IMG/VR virus record: IMGVR_UViG_2529292830_000010
DNA: 10,016 nt
Direction: 5' to 3' (one strand)
DNA from: a virus
Taxonomy: Duplodnaviria; Heunggongvirae; Uroviricota; Caudoviricetes
Positions 891 to 10,016 of the stretch are shown here, piece after piece (within the stretch, counting starts at the first letter, position 1; each line of letters begins with the position of its first letter). The notes under the pieces are model-generated. The model saw only the letters and a program-made list of their open reading frames with translations. It searched no databases and was not told the DNA's origin. Made by a program: the position numbers and the translations under genes.

Positions 891-1313
891 GTGGCAAAAG
901 TTTTTACACAAGAAGAGCGGGAAAAAATTAAAGGGCAGGTTGTTGAACTCGTACGCCAAAGTGGGCGCGAGACGTTACGACAACTGGAAACTAAAACTGG
1001 GGCAACAAGATATCTGATGAGCGTTCTGGCCAGAGAGCTGGTTGCCAGTGGCGATGTATACAACTCTGGTTACGGGTTATTCCCGTCTGAACAGGCGCGT
1101 AAGGACTGGCAAAATGCCCGTAAAAAGCTCTCAAGGGCAAAGCCGAAGAAACCATCTGCGGTTGATCCGGACCTAATCTGGTCATTACCAGACGGAGAAA
1201 TACGCCGCTACGACAGGCGCCTGAATATAATCTGTCGCGAGTGCCGGAAGAGCGAAGCTATGCAGCGTGTACTGGCTTTCTATCAGGGTAATTTTCAGGA
1301 GGCGGTACTGTGA
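891..1313 (+). CDS. Hypothetical phage protein (140 aa), possible helix-turn-helix
   Basis: ORF with GTG start at 891 preceded by AGGAGG (881-886). Basic C-terminal half. No family recognised with confidence. Confidence 0.55.
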   Translation: MAKVFTQEEREKIKGQVVELVRQSGRETLRQLETKTGATRYLMSVLARELVASGDVYNSGYGLFPSEQARKDWQNARKKLSRAKPKKPSAVDPDLIWSLPDGEIRRYDRRLNIICRECRKSEAMQRVLAFYQGNFQEAVL

Positions 1314-1727
1314 GTGAAATTAGCTATCAGGCTTCAATTGCCGCTGGCATTCGCATCAAAGGAGAGGAGCATGGAAATAAAACCAGAGGATTAGTTAAGC
1401 AATATCGTTTTATTTCCGATAAAAGAGGATGACCCTCGTAATCAGGTTAATTTTCTTTATGAGCCATCGGAAAGACCATATTGCCATCACGCTTCTGTCC
1501 GGGTTGACGAAAAAGAGCGTCAGGTCCGCTGTAAAATCTGCGGTGCAGTTGTGGAGCCATTTGACTGGATGCTCTCTGTGGCGAAAAGAGAAACCAGACT
1601 GGCAGATGATGTAAGGCTCTTGCGCCAGGAGGAACGGGAAAGGCGAAAAAATACAGAAAAGCTAATTCAGATTGAGCGTAACGGGAAAGCGTGGATACGC
1701 AGGGTGACAAAATCCAAAACTGAATAA
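1310..1727 (+). pseudogene. Frameshifted small phage gene: N-terminal part in frame 2 (1310-1432, VSEISYQ...), remainder in frame 0 (1395-1727, with CHH...CKIC zinc-ribbon-like motif)
   Basis: GTG at 1310 with AGGAGG at 1297-1302. Frame 2 stops at 1430-1432. Frame 0 is open from 1395 to TAA at 1725-1727 and reads like real protein but has no ATG/GTG/TTG start before 1549. N-terminus is paralogous to the ORF at 2169. Confidence 0.4.
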
Positions 1728-1820
1728 TTAAATTTAGCACTGTTAAAAATTTAATCCTTAACCGGAGGGATTTCTGCACCCTCAGAACAGCAGGAGGCCA
1801 CCCGAAAGGGCGGTAGTGAA

Positions 1821-2003
1821 ATGCGAAAGTTCAAAATAATTATTGAAACGGGAATGGCTGGTGGAGATTTCGAGGATGAATTCGAAGTGGATGCTGATGC
1901 GACGCCTGATGAAATACATGACGAAGCAAAAGATATTTTCTTTAACTACTGCAATTACTCATATCACGAAATAAAAGACGAAGAGGAAGAGCAAAATGGC
2001 TGA
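1821..2003 (+). CDS. Small highly acidic protein (60 aa)
   Basis: ATG ORF with about 18 Asp/Glu against 5 Lys/Arg. Stop overlaps the next ORF start (ATGGCTGA). Confidence 0.5.
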   Translation: MRKFKIIIETGMAGGDFEDEFEVDADATPDEIHDEAKDIFFNYCNYSYHEIKDEEEEQNG

Positions 2004-2172
2004 TTTTGGTTCAACTAAATACAACGTCAGTTTTGAAAAATGGCATGAACTGTTAATGGACTATGCAGAGTTACGTGGTGGCAGTGCTGCTGATGCTGAA
2101 GCATGGCGTGATGATTATGAAGCAGGAAAAAATCCGGTCGAAGCATATTGTGATGAGTGGGGCGATGAATGA
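1996..2172 (+). CDS. Small acidic protein (58 aa; MADFGSTKYNVSFEKWHELL...)
   Basis: ATG at 1996 overlapping the upstream stop. Its own stop overlaps the next ATG (ATGA at 2169-2172). Below the 60-aa cutoff of the ORF track. Confidence 0.4.
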   Translation: MADFGSTKYNVSFEKWHELLMDYAELRGGSAADAEAWRDDYEAGKNPVEAYCDEWGDE

Positions 2173-2456
2173 GCGAGATTAATTATCAGGAAGGGTATGA
2201 AACGGCGGAGCAAGCAAAACCAGTGGCATGGCGATATCGCTACGTGAAAAAAGGCGTTACGGACTTTCAGGAGAAGTAGTGGTCTGTTGACTGGAAATAT
2301 GTACCGAAAAAAGAGGATTGTAACGACAGGCCGAACTATCAAATTCAGGCCTTATTCACTGCCTCACCAGCCCTGGTTACATCAGAAGAACTGGTTAAAG
2401 CTGTGCACTTTTATGAACAACTAAAACGCGAAAATCCACCAACATCCGGCAACTAG
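2169..2456 (+). pseudogene. Small phage gene with in-frame amber (TAG at 2277-2279); N-terminus MSEINYQ paralogous to the ORF at 1310
   Basis: Single frame open from ATG 2169 to TAG 2454-2456 apart from the internal TAG at 2277-2279. No plausible restart codon after the TAG. Shares the KED-containing motif with frame 0 of the 1310 gene. Confidence 0.4.
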
Positions 2457-2973: not shown

Positions 2974-3091
2974 GACTGCGGGTGCTTGAGGCTATCTGCC
3001 TCGGGCATGAACACCAACGGCAGATAGAGAAAAGCCCCAGGTAACATTACGCGTCCTGCAAGACGTTTAACATTAATCTGAGGCCATATCT

Positions 3092-3151
3092 ATGCGACAC
3101 ATAGAGATTAGCCTCTTACGGACCGAAAGGTCAAGGAGAAGCAGGCTATGA
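3092..3151 (+). CDS. mok-like upstream ORF (19 aa) whose stop overlaps the hok start
   Basis: ATG 3092 with GAGG 8 nt upstream. TGA at 3149-3151 overlaps the hok ATG at 3148-3150. Confidence 0.3.
   Translation: MRHIEISLLRTERSRRSRL
3105..3134 (-). promoter_or_regulatory. Candidate sok antisense promoter (minus strand: -35 TTGACC, 18-bp spacer, -10 TAATCT)
   Basis: Reverse complement of 3129-3134 and 3105-3110. The predicted antisense transcript would start near 3098 and cover the mok start and SD (3079-3094), as expected for Sok. Confidence 0.3.
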
Positions 3152-3303
3152 AGCAGCAAAAGGCGATGTTAATCGCCCTGATCGTCATCTGTTTAACCGT
3201 CATAGTGACGGCACTGGTAACGAGGAAAGACCTCTGCGAGGTACGAATCCGAACCGGCCAGACGGAGGTCGCTGTCTTCACAGTCTACGAACCTGAGGAG
3301 TAA
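3148..3303 (+). CDS. hokD: Hok family type I toxin (51 aa), HokD/RelF-like
   Basis: Translation MKQQKAMLIALIVICLTVIVTALVTRKDLCEVRIRTGQTEVAVFTVYEPEE is near-identical to my recollection of E. coli HokD (RelF). Single TM helix plus the conserved C-terminal Cys-containing periplasmic tail. Confidence 0.85.
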   Translation: MKQQKAMLIALIVICLTVIVTALVTRKDLCEVRIRTGQTEVAVFTVYEPEE

Positions 3304-3761: not shown

Positions 3762-4040
3762 ATGGCGCACGATACCAAATTACACAATTCTGATGATTCT
3801 GCCGTCTTTGCCAGCAGGTGCGGACGGCGTTTTCATGCATTCAAATCGGACTGGTTCCAGCATCCACCATGCACTGAAGAGCAGGCTGAATGGATAATTC
3901 AGTGTTACCGCAGGCGCGGATACGAGGTTAAAAAAGCCCTTAGCCTCGACTACCGTCACTGGATAATCTCAGTCAGATTGCCTTACTCCGAACGCCCGCC
4001 GCGTCCGTCCCACACATTCCAGCAACGCATCTGGAGGTAA
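3762..4040 (+). CDS. Hypothetical phage protein (92 aa from ATG 3762; the ORF is open from TTG 3651), at the position occupied by rem upstream of ydfU in Qin
   Basis: Its stop TAA at 4038-4040 lies inside the RBS region of the next gene (GGAGG 4033-4037, GTG 4042), i.e. translationally coupled. The start is uncertain. Confidence 0.5.
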   Translation: MAHDTKLHNSDDSAVFASRCGRRFHAFKSDWFQHPPCTEEQAEWIIQCYRRRGYEVKKALSLDYRHWIISVRLPYSERPPRPSHTFQQRIWR

Positions 4041-4041
4041 C

Positions 4042-5090
4042 GTGCGGGTATTACTTCGACCTGTTCTGGTACCGGAACTCGGGCTGGTGATCGTTAAGCC
4101 GGGCCGTGAATCCATGCCGGTATTCCACAATACCCGGTTACTGGTGGAGCCGGAACCGAAAAGCATGCGTAATCTGCCGTCCGGGGTCGTTCCTGCCGCT
4201 CGCCAGCCGCTGGTGGAAGACAAAACATTGCTGCCGTTTTTCAGTAACGCACGGGTGATTCGTGCTGCTGGTGGTGCTGGTGCATTGTCTGACTGGCTGT
4301 TGCGCCATATTAAATCCTGCCAGTGGCCACACGGCGATTATCATCACAGCGAAACCGTCATTCACCGTTATGGTACCGGCGCAATGGTGTTGTGCTGGCA
4401 CTGCGACAACCAGCTGCGTGACCAGACATCCGAATCACTCGAGCAACTTGCTCATCAAAACCTGTCAGCATGGATGATTGACGTCATCGGTCACGCAATA
4501 AGCGGTACGCAGGAGCGTGAATTATCTCTGGCTGAATTATCCTGGTGGGCGGTCCGCAATCAGGTGGCGGACGCGCTACCGGAAGCGGTATTACGTCGTT
4601 CGCTGGGGTTGCGTGCGGAAAAATCCGCTCAATGTACCGTGAAAGCGACATCGTACCGGGAGAGCAGACCGCCACCAGCATACTGAAACAGCGCACAAAA
4701 AATCTTGCGCCGCTGCCTCACGCCCACCAGCAACAGAACCCACCACAGGAAAAGACGGTGGTCAGCATTGCCGTTGATCCTGAGTCTCCGGAATCTTTTA
4801 TGAAACGACCTAAACGTCGCCGCTGGGTTAACGAGAAATACACACGCTGGGTGAAGACACAGCCGTGTGCGTGTTGTGGTAAGCCAGCCGACGATCCCCA
4901 TCACCTGATTGGTTATGGTCAGGGCGGAATGGGGACAAAATCTCACGATATTTTCACGCTACCGCTGTGTCGGGAGCATCACAACGAGCTTCATGCGGAT
5001 CCGCTGGCGTTCGAAGAAAAGCATGGTTCTCAGGTTGATTTAATTTTTCGTTTTCTTGATCACGCCTTTGCAACTGGCGTGCTTGGGTAA
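4042..5090 (+). pseudogene. DUF968 (YdfU-like) protein gene split by a frameshift at an A5 run (4619-4623); would encode about 349 aa if repaired
   Basis: Two overlapping ORFs (4042-4686 frame 1, 4545-5090 frame 0) that together match the DUF968 architecture. C-terminal part has the Cys/His-rich motif CACCGKP...HHLIGYG...CREHHNELH. Confidence 0.65.
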
Positions 5091-5102
5091 AAGAGGTGAC
5101 TG

Positions 5103-5459
5103 ATGCTCATAGATTTGGTTTTACCTTACCCGCCGACGGTGAACACTTACTGGCGACGCCGTGGCAGCACATATTTTATCTCGGAGGAGGGAAAGCGTTA
5201 TCGCCGGGCCGTGGCGCTTATTGTTCGCCAGCAGCGGCTGAAATTAAGCCTGTCCGGAAGGCTGGCGATAAAGGTGATTGCAGAGCCACCGGATAAGCGT
5301 CGTCGCGACCTGGACAATATCCTGAAAGCACCGCTGGATGCGCTGACGCATGCGGGAGTGTTAATGGACGATGAGCAGTTTGATGAAATCAATATCGTTC
5401 GTGGTCAGCCAGTATCTGGTGGACGTCTGGGGGTGAAGATTTACCCCATAATGCATTAA
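5103..5459 (+). CDS. rusA: RusA-family Holliday junction resolvase (118 aa)
   Basis: ATG 5103 with AGAGGTGA RBS. Conserved motif RRRDLDN and similar length and layout to E. coli RusA. Confidence 0.9.
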   Translation: MLIDLVLPYPPTVNTYWRRRGSTYFISEEGKRYRRAVALIVRQQRLKLSLSGRLAIKVIAEPPDKRRRDLDNILKAPLDALTHAGVLMDDEQFDEINIVRGQPVSGGRLGVKIYPIMH

Positions 5460-5473
5460 GAGCAGGTCAAAAA

Positions 5474-6295
5474 ATGAAACTGGAAGATTTACCGAAATAC
5501 TACTCCCCAAAATCCCCTGGCCTGACCGATGCATCGGCCTCAACGTCAAAAGATGCGCTGAGTATCACTGATGTGATGGCCGCGCAGGGCATGACACAGA
5601 ATCGGGCTGAGATGGGTTTTTCTGCGTTCCTGGGGAAAATGGGCATCAGTATGAATGACAGGGCGCGGGCAACAGAATTACTGGCAGATTATGCACTCAG
5701 TCGGTGCGATCGTGTGGCGGCGTTGAGAAAACTTCCGGCAGAAATAAAACCGGTAGTGATGCGCATTATGGCTTCGTACGCTTTTGAGGATTATGCCCGT
5801 AGCGCAGCGAGTAAAAAGCAGTGCCCTTGTTGCTATGGGGAAAAATTTATTGAAAGCGTAGTTTTTACAAACAAGGTCCAGTATCCGGATGGTAAGCCGC
5901 CGGTATGGGCAAAGTGTACGAAAGGTGTGTATTCGTCTTACTGGGAAGAATGGAAAAAAGTCAGGGAGGTGGTAAAAGTTGCCTGTCCGGAGTGTGGCGG
6001 AAAGGGTGAGGTTTCCACCGCCTGTAAGGATTGCCGTGGGCGTGGTGTCGCCATTCATCGTGAAGAGTCGGTAAAACGTGGTATGCCTGTTATCAGAGAC
6101 TGCCAGCGTTGTGGTGGTCGTGGCTATGAAAGACTACCATCAACGGAGGCATTTAATGCTATATGCGAGGTGACAAACCAGATAACACGCGCGTCATGGG
6201 AAAAAACAGTTAAGAAATTCTATGATGCGCTGGTGACCCGGTTTGATATTGAAGAAGCATGGGCTGAGCGGCAGTTAAAAAAGGTAACTAGGTAA
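5474..6295 (+). CDS. Late-gene antitermination protein Q (large QuuQ/YdfT-type, 273 aa) with DnaJ-like CxxCxGxG zinc-finger motifs
   Basis: Sits immediately upstream of a PR'-like promoter and terminator. Motifs CPECGGKG, CKDCRGRG and CQRCGGRG. Resembles my recollection of E. coli QuuQ (YdfT). Confidence 0.85.
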   Translation: MKLEDLPKYYSPKSPGLTDASASTSKDALSITDVMAAQGMTQNRAEMGFSAFLGKMGISMNDRARATELLADYALSRCDRVAALRKLPAEIKPVVMRIMASYAFEDYARSAASKKQCPCCYGEKFIESVVFTNKVQYPDGKPPVWAKCTKGVYSSYWEEWKKVREVVKVACPECGGKGEVSTACKDCRGRGVAIHREESVKRGMPVIRDCQRCGGRGYERLPSTEAFNAICEVTNQITRASWEKTVKKFYDALVTRFDIEEAWAERQLKKVTR

Positions 6296-6438: not shown

Positions 6439-6514
6439 GGCCCTTTAGCTCAGTGGTGAGAGCGAGCGACTCATAATCGCCAGGTCGCTGGTTCAAATCC
6501 AGCAAGGGCCACCA
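6439..6514 (+). tRNA. tRNA-Ile (anticodon CAU, lysidine-type; ileX/ileZ-like), CCA encoded
   Basis: Cloverleaf folds by hand: acceptor GGCCCTT/AAGGGCC, T-arm GCTGG-TTCAAAT-CCAGC, anticodon loop CTCATAA. Near-identical to recalled E. coli ileX. Confidence 0.9.
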
Positions 6515-6614: not shown

Positions 6615-6688
6615 GCGTTGTTAGCTCAGCCGGACAGAGCAATTGCCTTCTAAGCAATCGGTCACTGGTTCGAATCCAGTACAGCGCG
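6615..6688 (+). tRNA. tRNA-Arg (anticodon UCU)
   Basis: Acceptor GCGTTGT/ACAGCGC, D-arm GCTC...GAGC, anticodon arm ATTGC-CTTCTAA-GCAAT, T-arm ACTGG-TTCGAAT-CCAGT. CCA not encoded. Confidence 0.85.
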
Positions 6689-6801
6689 CTATATTCATTC
6701 TTCCAGATTCCTTCCGGCAGAGCCTTATACTGAAATATACCTGGCTCAGGATATTGTTGAAAATATTTTATGTTTGTCAAAAATAAAAGTTCTGTTAAGT
6801 A

Positions 6802-7155: not shown

Positions 7156-7548
7156 ATACATATCTGGATTATCACTTGTTACGGTAAAAAGTGATTGCTT
7201 ACTGTTTTTGTGAGTGGCATTGCAGCAGCCGGATAATGTCAGTGCTGGCTGACGGTGTACTGGTGGCGGGTGTGGTGGTTGTTGCTTTCCCGTTGCTGAA
7301 AAAGAAAACGCCAGACTGTTAGCCGGGTATCAGTTAGCGGGAGAAATTTTTAAATACTTCACAATTCAGGCGGTTGACTGTTGTCTGGTTTGCGGGGAGT
7401 TTGTTAAAAGAAACTGGCATGGTGAATCCCCCTGTGCGGAGGGGCAATCAGCGAGTAGGTATATGGGATAATCGCGGATTCAGGTGCTGGTACTGAATTC
7501 ACCGGGAGGCACCCGGCACCATGCAATGGCACATAGCGCCACTCTCCA

Positions 7549-7575
7549 GCCCCTCTCCGGAGGGGCTGTTTATAT
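7549..7575 (+). terminator. Rho-independent terminator (GC hairpin plus T-rich tail)
   Basis: Stem GCCCCTC (7549-7555) / GAGGGGC (7560-7566), loop TCCG, then TGTTTATATTGATTTTGT. Confidence 0.5.
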
Positions 7576-7602
7576 TGATTTTGTCAGATGTGAGTAAACT
7601 CC

Positions 7603-9328: not shown

Positions 9329-9649
9329 ATGAACGCAAAAATCAGATACGGCCTGTCGGCTGCCGTTCTGGCACTGATTGCCGTCGGTGCGCCCGCGCCT
9401 GATATTCTCGACCAGTTTCTGGATGAAAAAGAAGGTAACCACACAACGGCATACCGCGATGGGTCCGGCATCTGGACCATCTGTCGGGGTGCCACGATGG
9501 TGGATGGAAAACCCGTTTTTCCCGGTATGAAACTGTCGAAGGAAAAATGCGACCAGGTCAACGCCATTGAGCGTGATAAGGCGCTGGCATGGGTGGAGCG
9601 CAATATTAAAGTACTACTGACCGAACCACAAAAAGCGGGTATAGCGTAA
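9329..9649 (+). pseudogene. R: SAR endolysin (phage-21 R-like GH24 lysozyme) truncated after about 106 codons by IS insertion
   Basis: N-terminal Ala/Gly-rich SAR segment (YGLSAAVLALIAVGAPAP). Catalytic spacing E-x8-D-x5-T in EGNHTTAYRDGSGIWT. Reading frame ends at a stop formed at the IS boundary (GCG|TAAGCG), roughly 60 codons short of a full lysozyme. Confidence 0.8.
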
Positions 9650-10016
9650 GCGACTCGTCAGAACCGTATTGATATTTACTGAGAGCTCAGATCAACTTTC
9701 CAGGGCAACAGATCGCGTACCCGGTTTGCCGGCCAGTCCTGGATATGTTCAATGACGTAACGCAGCCACTTTTCTGGCTCCACATTGTTCAGACGGCATG
9801 TGCCGATCAGCGAGTACAACACCGCCGCATGTTCACCACCGCTGTCGGAACCCGCGAACATCCAGTTTTTCCGGCCTACGGCCACTCCCCGTAAGGCGTT
9901 CTCTGCGATGTTGTTGTCGATTTCCACCCAGCCATTACTGCAGTACACGTTCAGTGCATCCCACTGTTTCAGCAGGTATGCGAACGCTTTTGCCGTATCT
10001 GAGTGACGCGACAGTG
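9646..10016 (-). mobile_element. IS66-family insertion sequence, one end only (element continues beyond window end)
   Basis: Terminus begins GTAAGCG at 9646 (characteristic IS66-family end) and the element encodes an IS66-type transposase C-terminus on the minus strand. Confidence 0.8.
9676..10016 (-). CDS. IS66-family transposase, C-terminal portion (N-terminus outside window)
   Basis: Minus-strand frame open to the window edge. Translation ...HSDTAKAFAYLLKQWDALNVYCSNGWVEIDNNIAENALRGVAVGRKNWMFAGSDSGGEHAAVLYSLIGTCRLNNVEPEKWLRYVIEHIQDWPANRVRDLLPWKVDLSSQ matches the conserved C-terminal region of IS66 transposases. Confidence 0.85.
   Translation of the reverse strand, partial: LSRHSDTAKAFAYLLKQWDALNVYCSNGWVEIDNNIAENALRGVAVGRKNWMFAGSDSGGEHAAVLYSLIGTCRLNNVEPEKWLRYVIEHIQDWPANRVRDLLPWKVDLSSQ

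Follow-up and report, generated by a model that had tools for sequence, protein, structure and literature searches.

The DNA analyzed here, a 10,016-nt stretch of a Caudoviricetes virus record (IMG/VR IMGVR_UViG_2529292830_000010; hereafter the window), is part of a lambda-like (Qin/Rac-type) prophage of Escherichia coli. It carries two small overlapping genes, ORF1 and ORF2, which together are referred to below as the cassette (Table 1). The initial annotation had assigned them to an early, nin-like region, and this placement was borne out by synteny with annotated relatives, in which a replication gene, DUF977, the cassette, hok/sok, DUF968, RusA, and Q follow one another. The sok RNA and the Hok-like ORF of the window together make up a hok/sok type I toxin-antitoxin locus (2980-3303). 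In GenBank record PP818812.1 ("Actinobacillus phage vB_Apl-pPE4"; recorded host, Actinobacillus pleuropneumoniae), the region is ~90% identical to E. coli prophages at the nucleotide level, and its genes, hok among them, follow the order usual for E. coli lambdoid prophages; the Actinobacillus host assignment of this record looks doubtful.

Table 1. Features of the window, and the ORF2 relative on plasmid NZ_AP027644.1
Feature	Coordinates	Strand	Remarks
Replication gene	8-850
DUF977/Ren-like gene	891-1313
phrog_1621 gene	1310-1727		Frameshifted, split into 1310-1432 and 1551-1727; adjoins ORF1 on the upstream side
ORF1 translation-initiation region	1792-1820	+	AGGAGG 1792-1797, hairpin 1798-1813, 7 nt, then ATG
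ORF1	1821-2003	+	60 aa
ORF2	1996-2172	+	58 aa
Downstream gene remnant	2169-2279	+	36 aa, internal stop; pseudogene in the window
sok RNA	2980-3150		Rfam RF01794, 100.8 bits
Hok-like ORF	3148-3303		51 aa; hokD in annotated relatives
DUF968/YdfU-like gene	4042-5090		Frameshifted, apparently two frames (4042-4686, 4545-5090)
RusA	5103-5459
Q antiterminator	5474-6295
tRNA, anticodon CAT	6439-6514		Downstream of Q; Met per ARAGORN, Ile per RefSeq
tRNA-Arg(TCT)	6615-6689		Downstream of Q
STnc100 gammaproteobacterial sRNA	7388-7577		Full-length match to RF02076, 132 bits; located after the tRNAs and before the lysis genes
Lysis genes			3′ of the two tRNAs and STnc100
Lysozyme-like ORF	9329-9649		Ends at 106 aa
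90-aa ORF	9676-9948	-	By eye resembles the C terminus of an IS66-family transposase
ORF2 relative, 84.5% identical	NZ_AP027644.1 30434-30610 (L105 9001-9177)

The genes that flank the cassette are broken. The phrog_1621 gene on its upstream side is intact in E. coli 042, where it encodes 118 aa with a weak zinc-ribbon match, and the gene behind ORF2 is likewise intact in that strain (119 aa). In the closely related prophage of ATCC 43886, whose cassette copy is 100% identical, RefSeq calls the gene after ORF2 a pseudogene ("frameshifted; internal stop") and does the same for the DUF968/YdfU-like gene. With only 36 aa left of the gene after ORF2 and with a split DUF968/YdfU-like gene, the prophage of the window looks defective, though ORF1 and ORF2 themselves are intact. 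At the far end, the short lysozyme-like ORF with the transposase-like ORF behind it suggests that the lysis cassette is interrupted by an insertion sequence.

As first described, ORF1 and ORF2 are joined by a stop/start overlap of 8 nt (ATGGCTGA, 1996-2003, + strand), which places the ORF2 start codon within the terminal codons and the stop codon of ORF1; 81 of 82 closely related loci overlap in this same register. The ATGA overlap reported between ORF2 and the next gene is also present (2169-2172), but that next gene is here the pseudogene remnant. From these overlaps we infer that translation is coupled. At the front of the cassette, a Shine-Dalgarno sequence (AGGAGG) stands 23 nt 5′ of the ORF1 start codon and is separated from it by a 6-bp hairpin (CCACCC-GAAA-GGGCGG) with a GAAA tetraloop, which is present in both the minimum-free-energy fold and the centroid fold. 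The stem is a perfect CCGCCC/GGGCGG in most alleles, has G-U pairing in two variants, and contains an A-C mismatch in the window; some loci have a different upstream sequence, the switch falling exactly at the hairpin. By analogy, the hairpin may draw the distant Shine-Dalgarno sequence close to the ORF1 ATG, forming a "split" ribosome-binding site of the kind that reportedly involves a hairpin in T4 gene 38. No promoter-like or terminator-like sites were found on the coding strand between 1300 and 2700, so the cassette is probably part of the early rightward operon, within which it would be transcribed and then translated by coupling.

Selection and acidity of the two genes

Conservation of the reading frames in related prophages had been named as decisive for the two genes, and the frames proved to be kept. 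Among 29 distinct DNA alleles, pairwise pN/pS values ranged from 0.02 to 0.21 for ORF1 and from 0.09 to 0.24 for ORF2, and 17 of the 20 variable sites of ORF1 fell at third codon positions; when the two alternative frames were considered, almost only nonsynonymous change was seen. Low pN/pS, third-position variation, and the diverse homologues described below thus show that both ORFs are real genes under purifying selection. Their exact window protein sequences each occur on at least 1,000 public contigs, and the cassette is present in 1,909 of 5,426 complete E. coli genomes (35%), always with a hypothetical annotation. K-12-like copies (~89% identity) contain internal stops in both ORFs, which is consistent with decay after the death of the prophage.

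The initial annotation had also counted roughly 18 acidic against 5 basic residues in ORF1 and 14 against 5 in ORF2, with aromatic residues in both, and had suggested a charge and pI calculation. The recount gave 19/5 and 15/5, i.e., one more acidic residue in each. ORF1 has 8 Asp and 11 Glu versus 4 Lys and 1 Arg (net charge, -14; pI 4.06) and 8 aromatic residues, and ORF2 has 7 Asp and 8 Glu versus 3 Lys and 2 Arg (net charge, -10; pI 4.17) and 9 aromatic residues, so that both are strongly acidic. Among the 56 window ORFs of at least 50 aa, they rank first and second in acidity, with net charges per residue of -0.233 (ORF1) and -0.172 (ORF2) versus -0.045 for the next ORF, and they fall within the most acidic 0.24% (ORF1) and 1.1% (ORF2) among 2,095 distinct ORFs pooled from the compared loci. 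This acidity is far beyond chance.

The same property was seen across the families to which the two proteins belong. The median net charge is -13 in the ORF1 family and -10 in the ORF2 family (pI ~4.1 to 4.2), and 14 columns of the ORF1 family alignment and 7 columns of the ORF2 family alignment are occupied by Asp or Glu in at least 70% of the sequences. In ORF1, a conserved acidic patch comprises columns 19, 22, 24-26, 30, 31, 34, 35, and 38. The family-wide median charge and the acidic residues at fixed alignment columns argue that hyperacidity has been selected in both families and is not incidental. Compared with the commonest allele, the window carries I12M and D25A in ORF1 and E15K and T46N in ORF2, of which D25A and E15K each remove a conserved acidic residue. 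Given the loss of these two positions and the broken flanking genes, the window copy may be under relaxed constraint.

Families, predicted folds, and known DNA mimics

ORF1 is a full-length member of Pfam family DUF7167 (PF23768), with 52.6 bits versus a cutoff of 24.4 and with residues 2-53 aligned to profile positions 1-60 of 60; it also matches phrog_1997 (E = 1.3e-29), and RefSeq already names it "DUF7167 family protein." It keeps the near-invariant DUF7167 positions I8, T10, G14, E22, D26, A27, T28, I32, A36, and E50, and the near-invariant D25 is an Ala in the window; the two allele-specific substitutions, I12M and D25A, are the sole difference between ORF1 and DUF7167/phrog_1997. A profile search returned 221 relatives, down to ~40% identity, from Escherichia, Klebsiella, Citrobacter, Pseudomonas, and metagenomes. 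AlphaFold2, run with the family alignment, yielded a model with a mean pLDDT of 85.2, with strands at 2-8 and 17-23 and a helix at 29-43; the acidic C-terminal tail (52-60) was modeled with low confidence. ORF1 is thus predicted to be a small alpha/beta domain, composed of a beta-hairpin and a helix, that bears a conserved patch of acidic residues and ends in a flexible acidic tail.

ORF2 matches phrog_519 (E = 5.1e-22), and a Pfam scan assigned it to no family. When 1.8 billion representative proteins were searched exhaustively, 60 homologues were recovered, nearly all of them 50- to 65-aa proteins that share the motif FEEW..L...A...GGSAAD..AWR.DY.aGkTP.eAW.dEW; two long repetitive matches in that search (P0144 and P0153) were discarded as low-complexity artifacts. 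All 29 sequences of the family alignment (ORF2 plus 28 others; alignment A1) match phrog_519. F13, W16, W37, Y41, and G44 are conserved in ORF2, the most conserved positions of the family being the aromatic F13, W16, W37, and Y41. The AlphaFold2 model obtained with the family alignment (mean pLDDT, 87.9) has helices at 13-27, 34-42, and 47-55, giving a predicted three-helix bundle in which, besides the highly conserved aromatic residues, seven acidic positions are conserved. One GenBank record labels a Morganella phage relative "DUF5419," an assignment that the Pfam copy used did not reproduce. Some Kuttervirus members of phrog_519 have been flagged as anti-CRISPR candidates by a machine-learning score alone (PMC9409062).

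The initial annotation had likened the two proteins to anti-restriction DNA mimics such as Ocr and ArdA. The likeness is one of early expression and strongly negative net charge per residue, and the combination of small size and strong negative charge that characterizes the DNA-mimic class is found in both ORF1 (60 aa, -14) and ORF2 (58 aa, -10). However, the two are about half the size of Ocr or ArdA or less, and unrelated to them in sequence and predicted fold. For the Ocr (T7 gp0.3) family, there was no Pfam match at E ≤1, and neither phmmer nor profile searches against the complete set of PDB sequences returned an Ocr chain at E ≤10; the architecture of Ocr, a long helical dimer in the shape of bent B-form DNA, was not seen in ORF1 or ORF2. 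The ArdA family gave no Pfam match either, and no ArdA chain was found in PDB sequence, profile, or fold searches. Overall, phmmer and profile searches of all PDB sequences returned chance matches only (E >0.1), the PADLOC-DB models of anti-phage defense systems gave no match at E ≤1, and an NCBIfam scan yielded nothing relevant. By the structure prediction that had been suggested for the two proteins, both are predicted to be compact (pLDDT 85 to 88), and both are unlike Ocr, ArdA, or any solved structure.

A closer parallel in size is T7 gp5.9, a small RecBCD-blocking DNA mimic of which residues 1-49 have been modeled (PMC9836394). It resembles ORF1 and ORF2 in size, in a pI of ~4, and in its many surface Asp and Glu residues (PMC9836394), and thus a mimic as small as ORF1 or ORF2 is possible. 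However, gp5.9 is a parallel coiled-coil dimer, whereas ORF1 is predicted to be an alpha/beta domain and ORF2 a three-helix bundle, and there is no sequence similarity, since gp5.9 chains were absent from the PDB search matches. Small size and acidity are tied to DNA mimicry but are not diagnostic of it (PMC9836394; EVADES preprint). In the literature searched, we found no functional study of DUF7167, phrog_1997, phrog_519, or DUF5419 and no evidence of anti-defense activity of either protein. Membership of ORF1 and ORF2 in the known DNA-mimic families is therefore rejected. What stands of the original DNA-mimic reading is that these are genuine small genes with family-wide conserved acidity and an accessory early location; a sequence or fold relationship to Ocr, ArdA, or any solved DNA mimic or anti-defense protein does not. 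As candidates for a DNA-mimic or anti-defense role, both proteins are plausible.

Distribution of the two families

In all 82 close relatives of the locus, the ORF1 and ORF2 genes are adjacent, and this adjacency reflects one cassette being copied among E. coli lambda-like prophages. ORF2 relatives were found within 3 kb of none of 57 loci carrying diverse DUF7167 genes (29 distinct sequences), and no DUF7167 gene was found in the contexts of ORF2 relatives in Enterobacter, P2-like phages, Kuttervirus, a Morganella phage, or IncI2 and IncU plasmids. Because the families never co-occur outside the one E. coli cassette, the comparison indicates that ORF1 and ORF2 are two independent stand-alone genes and not a functional pair. 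An obligate two-gene module, such as a toxin-antitoxin pair or a two-component inhibitor, is ruled out by the lack of co-occurrence across divergent relatives. A search for a conserved gene partner of either family found none; the sole recurrent neighbors are Ead/Ea22-like genes, in lambdoid prophages. Neither ORF1-ORF2 fusions nor fusions to Ea22-like proteins were found, in that no domain match lay inside a larger ORF, and the longer database entries of either family look like upstream start calls or read-through.

The accessory regions that carry the cassette contain many small overlapping ORFs together with Ead/Ea22-like genes, and lie after the replication genes and also in the leftward early region of Stx phages, where the cassette sits among Ead/Ea22-like genes in the leftward early operon. 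Relatives of ORF2 are spread more widely and are not confined to early regions. In Enterobacter prophages, the ORF2 relative lies directly 3′ of an Ead_Ea22 gene, and in P2-like phages it lies immediately 3′ of replication gene A (gpA). The order in P2-like prophages (positions 4001-5348 of loci L098 to L101) is ORF2 relative, 62-aa ORF, a variable two-gene insert encoding 227 aa (Terminase_6N-like match) and 104 aa, and portal gene; the insert occupies what we take to be the position at which P2 carries its tin/old cargo. A Morganella phage also carries a relative, as do ~180 Ackermannviridae genomes; the Kuttervirus copy stands just 3′ of the major head gene, outside any obvious early cluster.

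On plasmids, ORF2 relatives were found in 554 cases, 516 of them conjugative; in more than 400 plasmid records the relative has 80 to 90% amino acid identity to ORF2, the listed examples being ~60 kb in size with 84.5% identity. The plasmid examined in detail, NZ_AP027644.1, is a conjugative IncI2 plasmid that carries mcr-1, and its gene order is CaiF/GrlA regulator, DUF1187, ORF2 relative, SPFH, and NfeD. Here the relative has an 8-nt start/stop overlap as in the window, but with the DUF1187 gene, and it lies ~15 kb from the presumed transfer origin, after repA. Conservation of both families extends across genera and element types, at identities that fall to 30 to 45%.

Candidate functions

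We tentatively propose that ORF1 and ORF2 are two independent small, compact acidic binding modules that block basic surfaces of host or rival-element proteins, a reading that we regard as a real possibility, if somewhat short of probable. It is drawn from the compact predicted folds, the position-specific acidic conservation, the accessory location, and the spread of ORF2 over phages and conjugative plasmids. Each would block a host or rival-element protein by binding it stoichiometrically at a basic surface, probably one that contacts nucleic acid; the outcome would be host takeover or counter-defense inhibition, and ORF1 and ORF2 need not share a target. Compact, confident predicted folds (pLDDT 85 to 88) speak for binding modules rather than disordered spacers, and the presence of the ORF2 family in lambdoid and P2-like prophages, Ackermannviridae, and plasmids fits a target common to enterobacterial hosts. 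Against a blocking inhibitor stand the lack of similarity to any characterized inhibitor, the Kuttervirus relative behind the major head gene with no obvious early cluster, the position of the IncI2 relative outside the leading genes that enter a recipient first, and the window alleles that have lost D25 and E15 amid broken flanking genes. Small acidic proteins, moreover, have many unrelated roles.

A more specific version, which we consider quite unlikely, would make phrog_519 a pan-mobile-element inhibitor with a novel three-helix, aromatic-core DNA-mimic fold directed at one conserved enterobacterial hub, and DUF7167 a second, unrelated inhibitor with its own target. The hub would be one of DNA-binding immunity or of the nucleoid, e.g., RecBCD, a type I restriction enzyme, BREX, MukBEF, or H-NS, and the carriers would be temperate phages, virulent Ackermannviridae, and IncI2 and other conjugative plasmids.

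For the prophage copies, the serious rival to the blocking modules is that the two proteins act like the exo-xis/Ea-type developmental modulators, tuning lysis-lysogeny or induction via host transcription, replication, or the cell cycle; as an overall explanation we judge it unlikely. The small proteins of the lambda/Stx exo-xis region (orf60a, orf61, orf63, ea8.5, and ea22) share with the cassette the Stx-phage neighborhood, small size, and early accessory nature, and exo-xis genes reportedly affect lysogenization and induction (PMC3824215, PMC7093339). The neighborhoods point the same way, with the Stx-phage cassette among Ead/Ea22-like genes of the leftward early operon and Enterobacter ORF2 relatives directly behind an Ead_Ea22 gene. 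In addition, of the 66 DUF7167 loci, among which are a few E. coli cassette copies, 44 have within 900 bp downstream an ORF from a single cluster of related sequences, the representative of which is annotated as an Ea22 protein in phage vB_EcoS-689R5. However, the ORF2 family also occurs in virulent Ackermannviridae and on conjugative plasmids, where there is no lysogeny decision, and neither protein has a sequence relationship to the characterized exo-xis proteins or a DNA-binding or zinc motif. Nor does the window cassette stand between exo and xis: it belongs to the rightward operon, behind the replication genes. The exo-xis modeling paper does not include ORF1 or ORF2 among the ORFs it covers.

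That the proteins are anti-restriction mimics of the Ocr/ArdA type, which would imitate the B-form DNA backbone and occupy the DNA groove of type I restriction-modification or BREX enzymes, is improbable, and much less likely than the general blocking module. Net charges per residue of -0.23 and -0.17, a pI of ~4.1, the conserved acidic positions, the early accessory genes, and the precedent of gp5.9 for a mimic of similarly small size agree with it; charge and size are its sole positive evidence. There is similarly little likelihood that they are partner or antidote subunits that neutralize or chaperone a basic neighbor protein, e.g., an Ea22-like, DUF1187, or toxin-like protein. ORF2 relatives do nearly always overlap the preceding gene or sit 1 nt away from it (DUF1187 in IncI2 plasmids, Ead_Ea22 in Enterobacter prophages, gpA in P2-like phages), and one GenBank record names a relative "antitoxin." That single label is without support, however, the neighbor is different in every context, which leaves no conserved partner, and in the window the neighbor of ORF2 is itself acidic. 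Finally, nonfunctional open frames kept by linkage in decaying prophages, as the frameshifted upstream and DUF968 genes, the truncated downstream gene, the stops in K-12-like copies, and the two acidic residues lost from the window allele might suggest, are highly improbable and, at the family level, largely refuted by strong purifying selection across intact alleles, conservation across genera and element types, and the abundance of the exact window sequences.

Both families are already catalogued and extremely common, and from a discovery standpoint the finding is ordinary; ORF1 and ORF2 are a well-founded entry in a candidate list for experimental screens, not a discovery. The two proteins are part of an abundant, uncharacterized "dark matter" whose reach is wide: the hosts of the cassette include Stx2a-converting phages, and beyond the plasmids, at least one of them with mcr-1, ORF2 relatives extend to the Ackermannviridae, which include phages studied with therapy in view (PMC9409062). 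If either one neutralizes a host defense or DNA-handling hub, this would add a new minimal inhibitor fold and would bear on phage host range, on prophage induction in pathogenic E. coli, and on the establishment of plasmids.
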